Of a DNA stretch of 64,000 nt, positions 15,001-33,000 are shown one piece after another. The stretch spans positions 1 through 64,000 of the forward strand of contig CAVOKF010000003.1 of assembly GCA_963696385.1 (NCBI GenBank), given 5' to 3'. The stretch comes from an uncultured delta proteobacterium (GTDB lineage Bacteria; Myxococcota_A; Polyangia; Polyangiales; Polyangiaceae). Made by a program: the position numbers. How positions within the stretch are numbered: the stretch's first letter is position 1; each line of letters opens with the position of its first letter.

Positions 15001-18000
15001 GTTTCGGTCGACCCAGGCCCGGTGGGCAGCTGCACCCAGGGCGCGCGTCTCCGTGGGTCGAAAGGCAGCCGCGCTTGCACCCGTCGCTTCGACCGGATCG
15101 CCCTGGAGAGTCATCCTGACGTGCTTCGAGCGAGCCGGAAGCGGAGTTGTTGCGCGCTCCACGATGGCGAACATGGTGCGCGAACATAGCGCTGGTCCCC
15201 GGCGAATTTTCGGTGGATCGGCGAAGTAGCCAAGACGGGGTTCATCACTTCTCTTCGGCTGCGTCCTTGCGGACGCGGCGCATGACTCGGGGTCATCGTG
15301 GGTCGCTAGCCCTTCGATGTGAGGCTTTCTCATTCTCTCCTTCCTGCCGCTTTTCACGGCGCACCCCTGACGCAACGGAAGCCGAGGTAGTAGTTGCGGT
15401 ACGACGGGTAGAAGGAGTCGTAGCGGAACGGGGGAAGCAAGTACGACGCGGGGCCGCTGAAGCCGCCGCCCCGGAACACCCGGGCGGAAGCTGTCGTGAG
15501 ATAGGCGCAATTCGTGCCGGGGTCGACGTACGTAGCATACCAATCCAGGTTCCACTCCCAGACTTCCCCCGCTATATCCAGCTGACCCCAGTAACCAGCT
15601 CCCAGCGTCGCCGTCCCGATCGGCGCGATATCCGTCGGGTTGGCCGTGTAGTTGAAGTCGTAAATCGCGTACTCGTTCGCCGTCCCCGGATCCGTTGAAC
15701 CCCACGGGTACTCAAGCTGCTGGCTCCCTCCCGCCGCCACGTGCTCCCACTCCGCTTCGCTCGGCAAAAAACCGTAACGGTGTCGGGCGAGCGGTGGAGC
15801 TGATCGAAGCGGGCGAGCGTCGCCTTGACCAGCTCGGGCGTCGGAACGCCATCGATGTGCGGAGTCTCTGGCCGGCCGTGCTCGAGCGCTGAACGCCATT
15901 CGCGATAGAGCGCCCGCACGCGGTGGGGCGGCACCCGGGCTCGAATGACAATTTCGCGAAGCGCTCTTGCGGTCCCGACACCCGCCACTGCGTCATGGGT
16001 CCATTCCCCTCAGACAGCGCGAACGCTGACCTGTCGATCGTTTTGGAGGAGCCTGTCGAGTTCGTCGGGGTCCGACGTGAGGACGACGGCCGGCGATCCG
16101 TCGCCAACAGCTGCCGCGGCGACCAACGCATCGATCCCATCGTCCGTCTTGGCGAGGTAGCGCAGTCGTCCGGCCCGGCGAGCGGTCGACTCGTCTGGCG
16201 CTTGGAGCACTGTTGCGGCGCGCTCAAGCGCCCCGAGGATGCGATTGACCTCCGCGTCGCGAGCCCCATCGCCCGTCGTGCTCTCGACCAGGATCGGCGT
16301 GGGCACGCAGATCGCCCCATCGTGTTCGATGACCCAGCGCAACCACTCTCGGGCGCGCTGGGAGCCACCAACGAGCGCCGTAAGGCCGCCGCTGTCGAGC
16401 ACGCACCGCGGCGGGCCGACCTTGGCGCGCTTCGACGATCGCCCGCGCCTCATCGAGCGCGGAAGATGCGGCGAGCGTCGCGGGCAACCTCGGCGCGAAC
16501 GGCCGCCGGTGCCGCTCCATGCTTGGCGTCGAGCTCGTCCAGCAGCCCGCGGAGCTCCAAACGCGCGAGACGCTCGCGAGCGGCCTCATTGAGGAAGCTC
16601 GAGACGCCGCGTGGGCCGGCCACGTGTCGGATTTTCGCTAGCGTCTGCTCGTCCAAGGTCGCGGTAACGCGTTCCATGCCTAAAGCATACTCTGAGTAAT
16701 ACTTTGGCGCCAGAGCCCTCGACCGTCGTCTCCATGCGATCTCGCGTGTCGCCAATGGGTTGACCGCGGTCACCACGCGATCGATGAAGCGTCGACTCCA
16801 CGACGCCCCGCTCGCTCGCGAAATCGGCGGCCGGTCGACGACTGGGCCTCCACGCCGCCACGAGTCGTTGCCCCTGCTCCCAAGTCCGCCGCGATGTTCC
16901 CGTCTTCGTGTGTCATGGCTGGGCGAGTACGGCGCCGAAGCGGGCAGCGTCATGACGCGGTCGGCCGAACGCCTACCTGCAACGAGCATTGAAACAAGGA
17001 CACCCGCGATTGACTATCGAAGCCAGCGCCCCTAGGTTCAAGGCTCCGGCGATGTCAAACGACGGCGCGGTCTTACTTCCCGTCGGCCACCGCTGCTCCA
17101 CCGTTGCGCTCTTGGACGCGTGCGGTCTGAGCTCCAAGACAATGGCGTTCGACTCGATGATCTCTCAGCTGAGCGCGATTCGCGACTGTCTCGAGAATGA
17201 CTTCAAAGAGTTCCTGAATCCGACGAACTATCGCAAAGTCCACACGCGCACCGTCAATATCATCGATGGCGCTGTGGAAGAAGCCTGCGTCGAATACCCG
17301 AGCGTCAACTGGTACTACGAACAGGCGCACCGGGCCATCGGCGACAACGACCTCACGAACACCTCGACCTATCACCTGCAGCTCGCGTTCACGCATGAAG
17401 ACCCGAGCGACCCAAACACCCACGCGACCATGCTGCGCCGAAGCCGCCGCATGCTCGACGTGCTGAAGGAGGAGCGCAACAAGATCGCAGTTCACATCGC
17501 GCCGGTGTTGGGCCTTACCGACTACACCCAAAAGAAAGCCGAGCTCACAGACGAGTTCGTGAGCTTCGCCGACTTCTTGGCCTCGCGTTACAGCCACACT
17601 TCCGGCTTGTTCTTTCTCATCGTCAAACTGCGCGAGCCGGCTCCGGAGGAGAACAGCGAGCTCATCTTCAAGAACGAGCGCTGCAGTGTCTACACGATCT
17701 ACGCGAACAGCGAGTTCATCGACGCCGGCGCCCCCTTCGAGGGCAACCACGAGCACGAGGTCGAGGCCATAAAGAAGATCCTTCAGCGCGAGAACCTCGA
17801 ACGCAGCCGAAGCTACAAGATCTACTTTCCGCTCTTCGATCATGTCGAGGGAGCGAGCAACGAGATGCGGCTAACGCACGAGGGACTCCTCGACCATCCG
17901 CGTGTAAAGCTTGTCGACCGTCCATCCATTGCCGACTACATCATTTTTTGCCAGAACCATTTGGTCGACAGCAATCCGTTCGCGCATCAATTTCGCCCCG

Positions 18001-30000: not shown

Positions 30001-33000
30001 GGTGGTGATTCGGCGCCTCGAAAAGATCGACGCGCTTCGGTTGGAGCCGGTCTAGATATGAATGCGGCCGACAGCCAGATTTTCATCTCGATCGCGTCGT
30101 ACCGCGACATGTATCTGCCGTTCACTATCGACTCGGCGATTTCGAATGCGACGCATCCTCGTCGTCTGACATTCGGTATCTGCTGGCAAGCCGACGAGAC
30201 CGAAGAGCTGGATCGTTTCATCGGCGATCGATTTCGCATTCGCAAATATCCCTATCAAGCGAGTCTCGGCTACGGATGGGCGCGTCACGAAGTGCAAAAG
30301 CTCTATAACGGCGAGCCGTATCATCTGCTTATCGACTCGCACTCGGCATTCGCGCCCGGTTGGGACGAAAACCTGATCGCCCAGCTCGAGAGCAAGCCAA
30401 GCAAGAAGCCTCTCCTCACGACCAGCTCCCCGCCGTTTACCTTCGATGGAGGTAAAAGGGTCGTGTTCCCCTGGAATGGAACGGAAGAGGAGGGGGTGCC
30501 GCTGATGCGCTGCGAGCTCGTCCGCCCGGAAGGATGGCTTGACATTCAGATGTCGACGGAGCGCAAGACCGAGCGTCACCAAAAGACGCCGTTCAGCTGT
30601 TGCAATTTCGTCTTTACGCACGGCGTGTGGATCGAGGAGGTGCCGGAGGATCCGGCGATGATCAACGCGTGCCACGAGGGACCGCTCTCCATCCGCACAT
30701 TCACGCACGGCTATGACATGTTCTTGCCCGACGAGATTCAGGTGTGGCACCTCGACTATGGCAACTATCCGGGCGGCTATCGTCACAAGGTGTGGGAGAC
30801 GAAGAGCGGCAAGTGGCAGAGTGAACACACTGACAAGATGATCCAGCGGATGCAAACGCTGGTCTTCGGCACGGGCGATATGAAAACCCTCGGTCGCTAT
30901 GGGCCAGGCACAGAGCGCAGCGTCCGCGAGTGGGGCGAGCTCGCGGGCCTCGATCTTACGCCGTAGAGCGATCGAGTTTCGCTGACTTCACCTGTGACTC
31001 GATCCAGCGATAAGTGGGCAGAAGCCCCTCGCGCAGGTTGCAATGCGGCGCCCAGCCGAGTCGCGCGCGAATGAGGTGATTGTTGGACGTGCGCCCGCGC
31101 ACGCCGAGCGGCCCGTCGATGTGGCGAATCGAAAGTCTCTTGCCGGCGATGTCCATGATGAGTCGCACCAGCTGATGGATCGAAAGCATCTGGTCCGAGC
31201 CGACGTTGAGGGGCTCTTCGCAGTCAGATCGCATCAGACGCAGGACCCCCTCGAGGCACTCATCGACGTAGAGAAAGGAGCGCGTCTGCTGGCCGTCGCC
31301 CCAGATTTCGATCTCGTCGTTCGCCATAGCCACTTTGCGGCACAGCGCGGCCGGCGCCTTCTCGCGGCCATCGTTCCAAGATCCTTCGGGGCCGAAGACG
31401 TTGTGCAGCCGCGCGATGCGCGTCGCGAGGCCATAGTTGCGCGCGAAGGCTAGATAGAGCCGTTCGCTGAAGAGTTTTTCCCAGCCGTACTCGCTGTCGG
31501 GCGCCGCGGGATAGACGCTGTCTTCGCTGCAGTGGGGATTCAAGGGATCGAGCTGGTTGCGTTCGGGGTAGACGCACGCGGTCGAGGAGTAGAATATGCG
31601 GCCAATCGAAGCCTGCGTGCATACGCGTAGCAGGTTCAGGTTGATGAGCGCGGAGTTGTGCATGATGTCGGCGTCGTTCTTGCCGCTTGAGATGTAGCCA
31701 GCTCCGCCCATGTCGGCGGCGAGCTGGTAGACCTCGTCGAAGCCGCCCGAACACGCATCGGCACAAGTCTTGGAATCGTGCAGATCGCCGACGATGAATT
31801 CGTCCGCCGTCGTCGGGCGATAGCGGGGTCGCTGTAGGTCGACGGCGCGCACCCAAAAGTTCTCGCGCTTGAGGCGATTCACCAGGTGGCTGCCGATGAA
31901 CCCGCCGCCGCCGAGGACGAGCGCGCGCTTCATGCCTCGCCGCCACTGAAGAACCGTCGGTGGAAGTTCTCCATGTCCCACATCCGCTGCGAGTGAAAAT
32001 GGAAATGGAAATGGTCCCCCTCGGGAACTTGCCGGAATTCCGGCTTGAGCACGAAAATCCATGCTGCTGCCGCCGTATGGCTGGATGAACGTTTGGTTCT
32101 GCGTGGGCCGCTCCGCTCTGTGAATGCGCCCCGCGATCACGTCGATCGCCTCGCCCCCATATCTGTTGGCGATGAAGTGACCAACCGCCACGTCGTCGGG
32201 CATGGTCTTGGGATAGGTGGACAGGATGTGTTCCCGGCAGTTCGCCAGGTCCGCCACGATATCCCTTGAGATGAGAAATCCGGACCCCGACACGAACGGG
32301 AATCCGCTCGCGCCGTCGACCATCACGGCGCCCTGATAGACCCCCGTGCGAGGGAGGGTCTTCGCGTACTTCTCGAGTCCGGCTACATCCACGTAGCTCG
32401 ATGCACAAACCGTGTAGACGAAATCGTAGTCCCGCATGAGGTGCCGAAATGCGACCAAGCGTTTTTGCAAAACGCAGTTCGCCTGGTCGGAAAATACGTC
32501 CGCGGCGCCACACAAAATAATGTCTCCGGAGACGCAGAATTCACCCTCGGCGAGCTCTGGCTTCTCCGTCGAAATGAGCGCGTCGACCTCGACGAGGCTC
32601 GGACCGGCTCCGTGGGCGCCGTAAACATAGAAAATGTCGGCGTGGGAGGGGACTCTTGCCCACGTCGCGCGGATCGTTTGGATGCAGCGCTGATAGTGCG
32701 TGAGCCTACATCCGAGAACCAAGATTGCGATCTTCACGTCGGGCGTGGACATGGCCTCCGCTTTTTCGACTGTCCGTATACCACAGTCTTGTCGTGACAA
32801 AATCCGCGTCGCGGCGGTCGGCGGCTGGGTGTGCAGCAAGTGGCCGTCCTGGCCTCCGAGACAGACCGCAAACGGCTTGCGGATCGCTCATTCCGTCATC
32901 GGGTCGGGCGCGGCGGGCCGTCGACGCGGGGCGCGAGGCACTCGCGCCGCACGAGCGCCGAGGCTTGGCCGACGTCCGCGAGCCAGTCGGATCCCATGCG

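Follow-up and report, generated by a model that had tools for sequence, protein, structure and literature searches.

A conserved myxobacterial operon predicted to hydroxylate, O-glycosylate and export a proline/threonine-repeat protein

Why should a soil myxobacterium keep a row of oxygenase and glycosyltransferase genes around the gene for one small protein of proline/threonine (PT) repeats? The question is raised by a 64,000-nucleotide stretch of DNA (the window) from an uncultured member of the Polyangiaceae, in which positions 17052-32839 form a compact operon around the PT-repeat gene g588 (Table 1). An earlier note had read this operon as one for a Tat-exported protein that is hydroxylated and glycosylated. 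We found its open reading frames (ORFs) where it had placed them when the window was checked by ORF and translation, and its observation as a whole was confirmed by ORFs, Pfam, synteny and structure models. Its interpretation fared unevenly: the conserved-operon core held in every test that could be run, Tat export is something we still infer, and the UDP-galactopyranose mutase said to accompany the operon had to be given up. The answer we favour, with somewhat better than even confidence, is that the repeat protein undergoes RRE-guided proline hydroxylation and O-glycosylation in the cytoplasm and is then exported, probably by Tat. A literature search found no description of a bacterial pathway of this kind.

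Gene layout and conservation across loci

Downstream of g588, the genes g589-g590-g591-g592-g593-g594 overlap or almost abut (overlaps of 4, 1 and 7 nt, the others nearly touching), and this set is flanked by a second GT60 gene, g587, transcribed divergently from g588, and by the GDP-mannose 3,5-epimerase gene g595. The start of g593 is uncertain, as its ORF is open from 28814 and conserved from about 28910 onwards; the g594 ORF opens at 29956, its likely ATG lying 3 nt past the g593 stop. A further RRE-type cluster adjoins the operon at 32896-36998.

The synteny reported earlier was recovered, with the g588-g594 order being the same in seven loci (five from Polyangia, two from Nitrotoga). In one of them (L002) 6.4 kb separate g589 from the substrate gene upstream, and in another (L005) the substrate was missed by tblastn and found by reading ORFs. 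The comparison was extended to 74 metagenome loci, and the counts that follow refer to 72 non-redundant loci, genomes and metagenomes taken together. Of the 66 loci that could be scored, 54 have g590 behind g589. The order g590-g591-g592-g593-g594 is present in 13 of 21 loci, g590-g593 is kept in four more, and four have other gene orders. A substrate-like ORF precedes g589 in 25 of 28 non-redundant loci, usually by 19-170 nt, and none was seen in the other three. In distant loci further glycan enzymes of eukaryote type join the set (PF03407/GT77-type, GT92, FUT8-like, PLOD-GT and sulfotransferases), and MBOAT acyltransferases occur in other loci.

Many glycosyltransferases, a nucleotide-sugar epimerase, and the sulfotransferases and MBOAT acyltransferases just mentioned would also suit a polysaccharide or glycolipid locus, with g588 as an unrelated small membrane protein. 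We consider this very improbable, because the PT-repeat ORF travels with the enzymes in those 25 loci, two of the transferases bear peptide-binding PqqD domains and homologues of protein prolyl hydroxylases are present, while Wzx, Wzy, Wza, an ABC transporter or a priming phosphoglycosyltransferase was seen neither in the operon and the window flanks nor in 12 inspected loci.

Table 1. Features of the operon, in window positions
Feature	Positions	Strand	Basis
g584, large accessory protein: DUF1796-like N-terminus, GT-B middle, glf-remnant tail	17052..20510	+	Pfam
Degraded UDP-galactopyranose mutase (glf) remnant, two frames	20127..20358	+	TIGR00031, GLF
g586, accessory protein, no known family	21548..22288	-	no Pfam or NCBIfam match
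g587, GT60/Gnt1-type polypeptide GlcNAc-transferase homologue	22224..23237	-	PF11397, E 1.7e-44
g588, presumed substrate, 154 aa	23435..23899	+	ORF, alignment, upstream position in other loci
g589, N-terminal PqqD/RRE + GT-A glycosyltransferase	23916..25241	+	Pfam, profile search, AF2/Foldseek
g590, minimal PHD-like 2OG/Fe(II) oxygenase, 206 aa	25277..25897	+	invariant residues, AF2, Foldseek
g591, 673 aa, N-terminal half fucosyltransferase-superfamily GT-B (O-FucT-like)	25894..27915	+	Pfam, family matches
g592, PhyA/PHD-type prolyl 4-hydroxylase homologue	27915..28916	+	Pfam, solved-structure profile search
g593, HPAT-like glycosyltransferase + C-terminal PqqD/RRE	28910..30055	+	Pfam, family-level matches
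g594, second GT60/Gnt1-type transferase	30058..30966	+	PF11397, E 1.1e-42
g595, weak Fringe/GT31-like N-terminal domain + C-terminal GDP-mannose 3,5-epimerase	30956..32839	-	Pfam, solved match

The presumed substrate and the enzymes that would dock on it

The g588 gene starts with GTG, about 13 nt behind a GGGAG, and its product is laid out as a leader helix (residues ~5-25), SRR (34-36), a W41-I-A-P-V h-region, PT repeats (~78-118) and a conserved, hydrophobic C-terminal tail; its only Pfam match is to the PT repeat (E 1.2e-3). Within the protein set, g588 alone has a strongly hydrophobic 19-mer. The highest such value among the enzymes, 1.82, belongs to the Rossmann motif within the glf remnant, and all enzymes of the operon look soluble and cytoplasmic.

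A leader profile gathered small proteins in 146 representative clusters, a family that shares one order: an amphipathic helix, (S/T)RR, W-V-A-P-V, about 16 uncharged residues, a basic c-region and AxA. At least three PT dipeptides occur in 85 of the 106 clusters that have at least 30 residues past the h-region. Cores of g588 homologues reach about 200 residues, are repetitive and vary highly in length and sequence, each repeat containing Pro followed by Thr or Ser. The C-terminus of some homologues runs through a hydrophobic segment and K/R to an acidic tail, which by the positive-inside rule would place the PT region outside the cell. The twin arginine, described earlier as invariant, is so in 8 of 8 close substrates but not in the wider family (RR in 113, KR in 20, RK in two and KK in one of 136 members).

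Two glycosyltransferases carry a domain that could hold such a leader. In g589 a PqqD domain spans residues 36-102 (Pfam E 2.6e-11) and recurs in 119 of the 120 relatives listed; residues 10-100 match solved leader-binding proteins of lasso and PQQ systems, namely TbiB1 (5.4e-5), PqqC/D (1.4e-4) and TfuB1 (2.3e-4). Its GT-A domain has an invariant DxD (D232, D234), and the AF2 model with its Foldseek glycosyltransferase match was reproduced (pLDDT 82.5; WbbM 9.9e-7, GT6 enzymes ~2e-6). The C-terminal PqqD domain of g593 (Pfam E 3.6e-10) was likewise corroborated at family level, in 9 of 9 members and in 117 of the 120 relatives listed. Likeness to HPAT holds for the family, as had been claimed, with five of nine members matching at E<=1 and the L005 protein scoring 25.4 bits against a cut-off of 23.9; the window's own g593, already placed below the HPAT cut-off in the earlier note, gives no HPAT match at all. 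The HPAT family PF23452 is found on only 18 of the 120 g593 relatives listed, and the closest Atlas clusters to g593 are HPAT (0.93).

As RRE fusions are a hallmark of RiPP pathways, and RRE-glycosyltransferase fusions are flagged in PMC7470986 and PMC12710340 as uncharacterised candidate RiPP enzymes, the product might be a glycosylated peptide acting as antibiotic or signal, its leader proteolysed perhaps by the DUF1796 domain of g584, annotated as a putative papain-like peptidase. The neighbouring RRE-type cluster would fit this idea as well. We nonetheless think it improbable, since the long, repetitive and highly variable cores are unlike defined bioactive peptides, the C-terminus of some homologues holds a membrane anchor, the inspected loci share no ABC or C39 exporter, and g584 is absent from many loci.

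Oxygenases, sugar transferases and accessory proteins

The fold of g590, left unresolved in the earlier note, is that of the P4H/PHD enzymes. No Pfam or PDB match was obtained by sequence, but its AF2 model (pLDDT 93.5, pTM 0.88) has as best Foldseek match the Pseudomonas putida prolyl 4-hydroxylase 4iw3 (2.9e-7, TM 0.60-0.62), with many PHD2 entries next in rank. H120, D122 and H173 (HxD...H) are invariant, and one source names members of the family prolyl 4-hydroxylase. Behind an N-terminal domain of about 110 residues, conserved and of no known kind, g592 matches 2OG-FeII_Oxy_3 (Pfam E 3.3e-17). Its best solved match is indeed 6t8m (profile E 1.7e-9), which is DdPhyA, the Skp1 prolyl hydroxylase of Dictyostelium; EGLN1 (from 4.9e-4) and 4iw3 (0.068) follow.

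The two GT60 proteins, g587 and g594, match PF11397 (cut-off 21 bits), are 37-38% identical to each other and both contain a D-S-H motif; for g594 no solved relative was found by sequence. The O-FucT match of g591 was found again (E 2.6e-4, 21.1 bits, under the cut-off of 31.5 bits), and O-FucT is matched at E<=1 by 8 of 8 family members (best 1.8e-6, all under the cut-off). Its motif H208-x-R210-R211-G212-D213-F214 is invariant and its C-terminal half, of no assigned family, bears a weak HprK_rel_A trace (residues 605-663, 1.9e-4); no solved relative was found by sequence.

Together with the HPAT-like g593, these transferases could also work in a mucin-type manner, on Thr or Ser of the PT units, with the oxygenases hydroxylating Lys, Asp or Thr, modifying a sugar or sensing oxygen. 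Thr or Ser follows Pro in all repeats, O-FucT-type enzymes target Ser/Thr according to the family description, and GT60, as presented in PMC8724618, includes polypeptide alpha-GlcNAc transferases which in protists initiate mucin-type glycans on domains rich in Ser/Thr. GT60 enzymes could act on threonine directly, and hydroxyproline glycosylation would then be unnecessary. On the other hand, both oxygenases are nearest to protein prolyl 4-hydroxylases and are the most constant partners of the transferases (witness g590 behind g589), and the HPAT family is defined in PMC8012813 by its hydroxyproline acceptor. A product lacking hydroxyproline is therefore, in our view, a fairly unlikely alternative.

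By sequence, the epimerase domain of g595 (Pfam Epimerase, E 2.1e-42) is a GME orthologue: it matches Arabidopsis GME 2c59 at 1.9e-95 over domain residues 8-324, the next family following at 1.5e-29. Fringe or Galactosyl_T is matched by three of five g595 homologues, all under the cut-off, and in L003, L004 and L005 each half has a gene of its own. Pfam finds Glyco_trans_1_2 (4.1e-16) and DUF1796 (9.7e-5; 22.7 bits, just below the cut-off of 23) in g584, DUF1796 exceeding the cut-off in the homologues of L004, L005 and L031, and no solved relative was found for residues 588-1044. Homologues of g584 occur, at varying positions, in L001, L002, L004, L005, L031, L032 and L038. What had been taken for an accompanying UDP-galactopyranose mutase is a degraded remnant: the only UGM match in the g584 ORF (TIGR00031) covers residues 1047-1091, or model positions 2-46 of 378, a fragment in another frame (20254-20358) corresponds to GLF positions 169-203 (24.1 bits, under the cut-off), and the genome, 96% complete, holds no further GLF match. 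The g586 protein is conserved in L001, L004, L005, L031, L032 and L038, and the L005 version is a fusion with a CmcI/rhamnosyl O-methyltransferase-like domain.

Export route and proposed pathway

The claim of Tat export meets evidence on both sides. The genome does encode TatA and TatC. Among the 136 leader-family members, the basic pair follows S or T in 121 and has R in second place in 133, the uncharged stretch behind it has a median of 16 residues, and the first charged residue past that stretch is basic in 100 of 130; these four features together come closer to the textbook Tat consensus than to a Sec signal. AxA is found in 83 of the 136. However, no Tat-signal model of NCBIfam or Pfam matches any substrate, RR lies at a median position of 46 and inside the first 35 residues in just 25 of 136, and there are the 20 members with KR. 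Moreover, the W-x-x-P-V block is unusually invariant; W-V-A-P-V is far better conserved than ordinary signal h-regions, and thus it may be an enzyme recognition motif instead of, or besides, an export signal. The same enzymology might then be combined with another exit, (S/T)RR-WVAPV being mainly a docking motif for RRE or enzyme, or else a Sec signal or signal-anchor for crossing or tethering. The HMW1 adhesin, AIDA-I and the serine-rich-repeat adhesins are glycosylated in the cytoplasm and cross by a Sec-type route. Given the four leader features, we regard such an exit as possible but rather unlikely, and, judging from its sequence, g588 is probably exported by Tat. The loci have no dedicated exporter or leader peptidase in common, unless it is the DUF1796 domain of g584.

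In the pathway we propose, the g588 precursor would begin with a leader of a short amphipathic helix plus variable linker, continue with a signal-peptide-like segment ((S/T)RR, W-V-A-P-V-I-L, about 16 uncharged residues, basic c-region, AxA), and end in a core of x-P-T units and a variable C-terminal tail. The PqqD-type RiPP-recognition domains of g589 and g593, and in some loci a free-standing one, would dock on the conserved leader and keep the glycosyltransferase domains on the substrate. The PHD-type oxygenases g592 and g590 would turn repeat prolines into hydroxyproline, and glycans would be begun on hydroxyproline and/or threonine by the HPAT-like g593 and the GT60 enzymes g587 and g594. 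An L-fucose-like sugar, plausibly L-galactose, might be added by g591 from GDP-L-galactose made by the g595 epimerase, and g589, the Fringe-like half of g595, g584 and g586 could extend or decorate the glycans. The finished, bulky cargo would leave via Tat, its leader being removed by signal peptidase.

Enzymes of these types belong to plant cell-wall and protist Skp1 glycosylation, and here they stand in a bacterial operon. Most likely, this operon provides the myxobacterium with a heavily O-glycosylated PT-repeat protein that is secreted or tethered to the membrane.

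Conservation and genomic setting of the operon

The genes attributed to the operon in an earlier note are present as claimed, as judged by reading of the open reading frames and by Pfam matches, and the observation proved to be real and stronger than first stated. In a scan of one genome per species, the family of g589 (a PqqD or RRE domain fused to a GT-A glycosyltransferase) was found at full length in eight loci. Seven of these, five from Polyangia and two from Nitrotoga, keep one order: the presumed substrate (g588 in the window, a PT-repeat protein), g589, a minimal 2OG oxygenase (g590), an O-FucT-like protein (g591), a homologue of PhyA/PHD-type prolyl 4-hydroxylases (g592), an HPAT-like glycosyltransferase with a PqqD domain (g593) and a GT60/Gnt1-type protein (g594). 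A metagenome scan with a profile built from 27 g589 sequences added 74 loci, and merging of loci whose g589 DNA was at least 97% identical reduced the resulting 82 to 72 groups. Where at least 400 nt of downstream sequence were available, g590 directly follows g589 in 54 of 66 groups; in the remaining 12 the next gene is g593 (six groups), g591 (two) or g587, the second GT60 gene (one), or there is none (three). The full five-gene order occurs in 13 of the 21 groups with at least 5.7 kb of downstream sequence, while among the other eight, two have the run from g590 to g593 followed by the epimerase, two have a g587-type GT60 gene inserted before g593 and four show other arrangements. Gene order is conserved down to 38-47% protein identity. 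In the databases, the g589, g590 and g593 families comprise 171, 380 and 157 clusters, respectively, and those that bear a name at all are called 'PqqD', 'hypothetical' or, for g590, 'prolyl 4-hydroxylase'.

The genes from g589 to g594 are separated by a 36-nt gap, overlaps of 4, 1 and 7 nt and a 3-nt gap, and because of this tight packing they very likely form one transcript. The sequence GGGAG lies about 13 nt upstream of the GTG start of g588. In the host genome (6.9 Mb, 96% complete) the contig is GC-rich, with 63-70% in the flanks, and the operon region is lower, at 58.5-64%, which appears as a dip over 16-32 kb. Mobile and defence-type genes lie around it, and together with the dip they are consistent with a horizontally acquired island. 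The operon is rare and patchy within the phylum of its host: the g589 profile, run against 401 sampled genomes of this phylum, found the own genome only, with 0 of the 400 others matching, including 0 of 29 from the same family. This rarity, combined with the island context, suggests that the operon has spread horizontally.

Could the operon simply be a polysaccharide locus? We regard this as the weakest of the alternatives, because no flippase, polymerase, ABC transporter or exporter, or priming phosphoglycosyltransferase was found among 17 ORFs of the operon region, 26 of the flanks and 67 of 12 related loci.

Relatives were also sought in phages. Some clusters labelled viral are found among the Atlas neighbours of g590 and g593. 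In the cyanophage Synechococcus S-SCSM1, the gene just before that of a g590-like oxygenase (1e-12) is annotated as a protein O-fucosyltransferase, and a GDP-mannose 3',5'-epimerase lies within 8 kb. Searched against phage records, g590 matched 64, none of which reached 60% identity or 80% coverage of the query; a tblastn search with g593 against 50,697 phage records gave no match, and no relative was confirmed when viral contigs were scanned for patterns of the g590 and g591 families.

Several further features of the region were recorded on the way (see the table). A second RRE-type cluster adjoins the operon and was considered as a part of it, but the two occur together only in the 98%-identical relative (L001/L026), and we treat the cluster as separate; L001, a Polyangiaceae metagenome-assembled genome, is also the closest public relative of the window. 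Triads of PqqD, HprK-like and transglutaminase genes recur in L009-L016 and L021, and NTP_transf_5 genes with further large PqqD-fused proteins adjoin the operon in L079, L080 and L047. A small ORF lies upstream of the PIN-domain protein gene near the operon. Only a remnant of glf, the gene for UDP-galactopyranose mutase, is seen in the window, and the rest of the genome yielded no intact copy. L002 has at its edge a TNFR_c6/ephrin-receptor-like protein far larger than the TNFR-like protein of the window.

Coordinates of the operon and of features in and around it, in the window and in comparison loci
Feature	Sequence	Position	Strand	Remarks
Operon genes	Window	17052-32839		
Mobile and defence genes	Window	1311-4379, 16010-16989, 43119-44324		IS21 helper gene IstB, AbiEii toxin, PIN-domain protein, phage-type integrase
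glf remnant	Window	20127-20358		Two frames, read-through from the end of g584
TNFR-like protein	Window	20655-21314	-	219 aa; lipoprotein-like N-terminus, Cys-rich TNFR-like C-terminus (TNFR_c6 1.1e-4)
N-terminal domain of g592	Window	27915-28250		Residues 1-110
Fringe-like and epimerase protein, g595	Window	30956-32839		One ORF of 627 aa
Second RRE-type cluster	Window	32896-36998		HprK-like, small PqqD protein, transglutaminase-core3, radical-SAM, NTP_transf_5 nucleotidyltransferase (Pfam)
Fringe-like and epimerase halves	L001	17037-18877		Two overlapping ORFs in different frames
Free-standing PqqD protein	L002	2614-2958		About 115-150 aa, just upstream of the substrate gene
Free-standing PqqD protein	L003	1220-1594		As in L002
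Free-standing PqqD protein	L006	2688-3152		As in L002
Tandem short substrate genes	L066	1064-1333, 1497-1760		Before g589; K-R in place of R-R
Cyanophage S-SCSM1 region	L100 (MK867354.2)	95171-113512		Four annotated 2OG-Fe(II) oxygenases, one g590-like; 'GDP-fucose protein O-fucosyltransferase', GDP-mannose 4,6-dehydratase, GDP-L-fucose synthase, GDP-mannose-3',5'-epimerase, alpha-1,2-fucosyltransferase

The presumed substrate and its possible export

An HMM made from the N-terminal part of eight close substrates matched an ORF upstream of g589 in 25 of the 28 non-redundant loci that have room for one, usually at a distance of 19-170 nt, and in one locus as a tandem pair. A leader profile of 21 sequences, run over 1.84 billion representative proteins, gave 146 matches at E<=1e-3, 72 of them at E<=1e-10, nearly all of them 56-280 residues long and with the leader at the N-terminus. 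The layout of these precursors is constant. They begin with a short amphipathic helix (K-T-K-E-x-L-L-x-E-I-x-x-L-K) and a variable linker, continue with (S/T)-R-R, three to nine residues, W-V-A-P-V-I-L-S-x-P and a c-region, and end with x-P-T repeats and a C-terminal tail. At least three PT dipeptides are found in 85 of the 106 members with 30 or more residues after the hydrophobic stretch, and the only Pfam match of g588 itself is 'PT disordered repeat'. A membrane-like hydrophobic segment is present in the substrate and in none of the enzymes.

The tail takes four forms: conserved and hydrophobic, as in the window; a hydrophobic segment, then K/R and an acidic end; short and acidic (I-P-V-E-L-x-x-F); or missing. 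In the substrates of L047, L049, L059, L060 and L061 it is the acidic motif, I-P-V-E-L-x-x-F-x-I, that replaces the hydrophobic tail. A PEP-CTERM/exosortase role of the tail was considered and, for this genome, dropped, as NCBIfam gave no PEP-CTERM match and no exosortase (PF09721) was found in the 96%-complete genome. Apart from the loci listed in the table, a free-standing PqqD protein just upstream of the substrate gene occurs in L031, L032, L039 and L040, and there is none in the window.

The earlier note had described g588 as a Tat-exported protein. In favour of this route, the basic pair has S or T in front of it in 121 of 136 leader-family members (S-R-R-D-L in the window), and it is RR in 113, KR in 20, RK in two and KK in one. 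An uncharged stretch with a median length of 16 residues follows, the next charged residue beyond this stretch being basic in 100 of 130, and AxA is found downstream in 83 of 136. The genome encodes TatC (1.5e-61) and TatA (2.5e-16) at other sites. On the other side stands the position of the pair. The twin arginine of Tat signals usually lies within about the first 35 residues, whereas here its median position is 46, only 25 of the 136 members have it within the first 35, and the window protein has it at 35-36. Models of Tat signals gave no match at E<=10 for eight substrates in NCBIfam or 13 in Pfam, a result that has to be read with the fact that HMMER filters may drop such short matches. 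Finally, the W-V-A-P-V block is conserved beyond the need of a mere export signal. Given the missing model matches, the distant RR and this excess of conservation, we give the Tat route about an even chance. It is possible that the (S/T)RR-WVAPV segment is also recognised by an RRE or another enzyme domain.

A rival explanation keeps the same chemistry and lets the protein leave by Sec or stay attached by a signal anchor; the points just listed against Tat leave room for it, and the twin-arginine consensus speaks for Tat. In some homologues the C-terminal hydrophobic segment and the basic residues that come after it would, by the positive-inside rule, place the PT region outside the cell.

The putative modifying enzymes

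The fold of g590, left open in the earlier note, has been resolved by a confident AF2 model (pLDDT 93.5, pTM 0.88). In structure it comes closest to the prolyl 4-hydroxylase 4iw3 of Pseudomonas (2.9e-7, TM about 0.6) and to many PHD2 entries at about 3e-7, and the model predicts a double-stranded beta-helix whose HxD...H iron triad, H120, D122 and H173, is invariant in 26 sequences; a search against the sequences of solved structures gave nothing usable for g590 (best E 0.99). As regards g592, which matches 2OG-FeII_Oxy_3 in Pfam, the best solved match of its family profile is 6t8m (1.7e-9), followed by PHD2 and 4iw3. PMC7864055, the paper that goes with the deposited structure, shows 6T8M to be DdPhyA, the Dictyostelium enzyme that hydroxylates Skp1 ahead of glycosylation by Gnt1. 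The first 110 residues of g592 form a well-conserved domain without a family match, which may be a substrate-binding module. Next to these matches to prolyl hydroxylases has to be set a second rival, in which only threonine would be glycosylated, in the manner of mucins, and the oxygenases would have another task. The x-P-T repeat offers both residues, and the kinship of both oxygenases with prolyl hydroxylases argues for proline as a target.

Two of the transferases carry a PqqD domain well above the Pfam cut-off of 23.4 bits, at the N-terminus of g589 (44.1) and at the C-terminus of g593 (40.5). Among solved leader-binding proteins of lasso-peptide and PQQ synthesis, the domain of g589 matches TbiB1 (5.4e-5), PqqC/D (1.4e-4) and TfuB1 (2.3e-4), and in the AF2 model of g589 (mean pLDDT 82.5) residues 21-98 appear as strands followed by three helices. 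For this domain (residues 18-110), predicted in complex with the whole substrate from alignments of 27 and 8 rows, respectively, the scores were 0.28 and 0.26, the mark being 0.32; these runs had no controls, and they are counted neither for nor against binding. The catalytic part of g589 has a GT-A fold, nearest to WbbM and to GT6 blood-group and alpha-3-galactosyltransferases (about 1e-6), and its D-x-D is invariant in 27 sequences.

Both g587 and g594 match the Gnt1-type GlcNAc-transferase family PF11397 far above the cut-off (1.7e-44 and 1.1e-42). The assignment of g593 is less direct. A PqqD domain is present in nine of nine family members and in 117 of the 120 relatives listed, and in the protein-language-model Atlas its catalytic part falls beside HPAT clusters (score 0.93). 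Matches to the HPAT model PF23452 are marginal, being found at E<=1 in five of nine family members (25.4 bits in L005 against a cut-off of 23.9, 21.1 in L004 and 11-14 in three others), with a precomputed match in 18 of the 120 listed relatives; the g593 of the window has no match to this model. Against solved structures its GT domain gave nothing usable, only Vps33A (0.017) and PqqD (0.28), and Pfam identified no gene of a UDP-arabinose pathway in the operon.

In g591 the O-FucT match (PF10250) reaches 21.1 bits, under the cut-off of 31.5, and all eight family members match at E<=1, the best at 1.8e-6, again below the cut-off in every case. An invariant H-x-R-R-G-D-F is present, which we take to resemble the GDP-fucose-binding motif of fucosyltransferases. 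Searches of solved-structure sequences gave nothing usable for g591, g594 or residues 588-1044 of g584, a large accessory protein.

The C-terminal domain of g595 is, by its sequence, clearly a GDP-mannose 3,5-epimerase (GME), as it matches Arabidopsis GME 2c59 along 317 residues at 1.9e-95, far ahead of the next family (1.5e-29); its N-terminus is weakly Fringe-like. The two parts are one ORF in L002 as well as in the window, and separate genes in L003, L004 and L005. With such an epimerase, GDP-L-galactose would be available. This compound is the 6-hydroxy analogue of GDP-L-fucose, and we infer for this reason that it may be a natural donor for g591.

Distant loci add other families that modify glycans: PF03407 nucleotide-sugar transferases, GT92, FUT8-like, PLOD glycosyltransferase and RXYLT1-like domains, several sulfotransferases and methyltransferases, MBOAT acyltransferases, a JmjC oxygenase and further large PqqD-fused proteins. 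PF03407 is the GT77-type family to which AgtA of the protist Skp1 pathway belongs, and its presence is one more likeness to that pathway.

Relation to known pathways and meaning of the operon

The simplest reading of these data is leader-guided modification, since peptide-binding PqqD domains on two transferases, two oxygenases of the prolyl-hydroxylase kind, members of protein-glycosylating families (GT60, HPAT, O-FucT) and a co-travelling PT-repeat ORF all point to it. The PT protein would be hydroxylated and O-glycosylated in the cytoplasm, the compartment that can supply 2-oxoglutarate, iron and nucleotide sugars. That the operon glycosylates a protein is well supported by homology and co-conservation, while the Hyp chemistry, the sugars, the binding of the leader by the RRE domains and the Tat export are what we infer beyond that.

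Several known systems resemble the operon. In the protist Skp1 pathway, the P4H PhyA is followed by the GT60 alpha-GlcNAc-transferase Gnt1, PgtA and then AgtA or Glt1/Gat1. Soluble cytoplasmic enzymes, a PhyA-type P4H (g592 is nearest to DdPhyA) and GT60 proteins, of which the operon has two, are common to both, and fusions of enzymes occur there as here, according to PMC8724618. The target differs: a single proline of Skp1 is modified there, whereas here the presumed target is a PT-repeat protein whose leader resembles a signal, and Pfam found no Skp1 domain in this co-conserved ORF. RRE recruitment, the added HPAT-like, fucosyltransferase-type and GME enzymes and a probably exported product also set the operon apart. 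It thus works like the Skp1 pathway and is not a member of it, because its target is not Skp1.

The plant and green-algal route to extensins, AGPs and CLE peptides (P4H, HPAT of GT95, GT77 and GT31 extenders) shares a proline-rich repeat substrate, the HPAT-like g593 family, the weak Fringe/GT31-like domain and GME, an enzyme best known from plants. However, the hydroxylases of the operon are PHD-type and not collagen- or plant-type, the repeat is x-P-T and not Ser-Pro(3-5), and glycosylation would come before export. The plant enzymes are described in PMC8012813 as Golgi type II membrane proteins, whereas those of the operon look soluble and bear PqqD domains.

With RiPP systems (lasso B1 proteins, PqqD, glycocins) the operon has in common the PqqD/RRE domains, an N-terminal leader with a variable core and a precursor gene directly upstream of the enzymes. 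This likeness suggests a third rival, a released RiPP-like glycopeptide, for which the DUF1796 region of g584 would be the candidate leader peptidase; DUF1796 scores above the cut-off in three g584 homologues. In contrast to RiPPs, the core is a long low-complexity repeat, the leader contains a segment resembling a signal peptide, and a conserved leader protease or ABC exporter is missing. RRE-glycosyltransferase fusions are so far listed solely as uncharacterised in PMC7470986 and PMC12710340.

As for Tat signal peptides, the leader shares with them the (S/T)RR motif, some 16 residues of moderate hydrophobicity, the basic c-region and the AxA site, and departs from them in an n-region of 30-100 residues with a conserved helix, in the KR pair of some members and in the lack of an HMM match. 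No Tat cargo that receives its glycans ahead of export is known to us, although no search was aimed at this point.

Returning to leader-guided modification, all of its parts can be joined into one far-reaching proposal, which we consider unlikely to hold as a whole. Bacteria and some phages would possess a complete pathway for Hyp- and Thr-linked, extensin- or mucin-like glycoproteins, with PhyA-like P4H, GT60, GT95-like, GT77-type and fucosyltransferase-type enzymes. The Tat signal would double as a RiPP-style leader, held by the RRE domains until modification is done, much as Tat proofreading chaperones hold signal peptides, and the fully glycosylated cargo, sulfated in some lineages, would then pass through Tat. 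It is from this prokaryotic pool that eukaryotes would have drawn their enzymes for glycosylating Skp1 and plant cell walls. Searches of full-text papers, a collection without most subscription journals, brought up no account of such a bacterial operon. In PMC8012813 and PMC8724618, Hyp-linked glycosylation and GT60/GT95 are treated as eukaryotic, belonging to plants, algae and protists.

Soluble transferases tethered by RRE domains are possible tools for site-directed glycosylation of tagged proteins. If the operon does join these enzyme types to peptide recognition and a dedicated repeat protein, RiPP-style leader guidance would reach a protein-sized, secreted substrate, and the operon would offer a tractable system in which to study how pre-glycosylated cargo crosses a membrane. 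Its genes would also serve, as prokaryotic relatives, to trace where the enzymes of Skp1 and plant cell-wall glycosylation came from, and its product would represent a new class of bacterial envelope or matrix glycoprotein.
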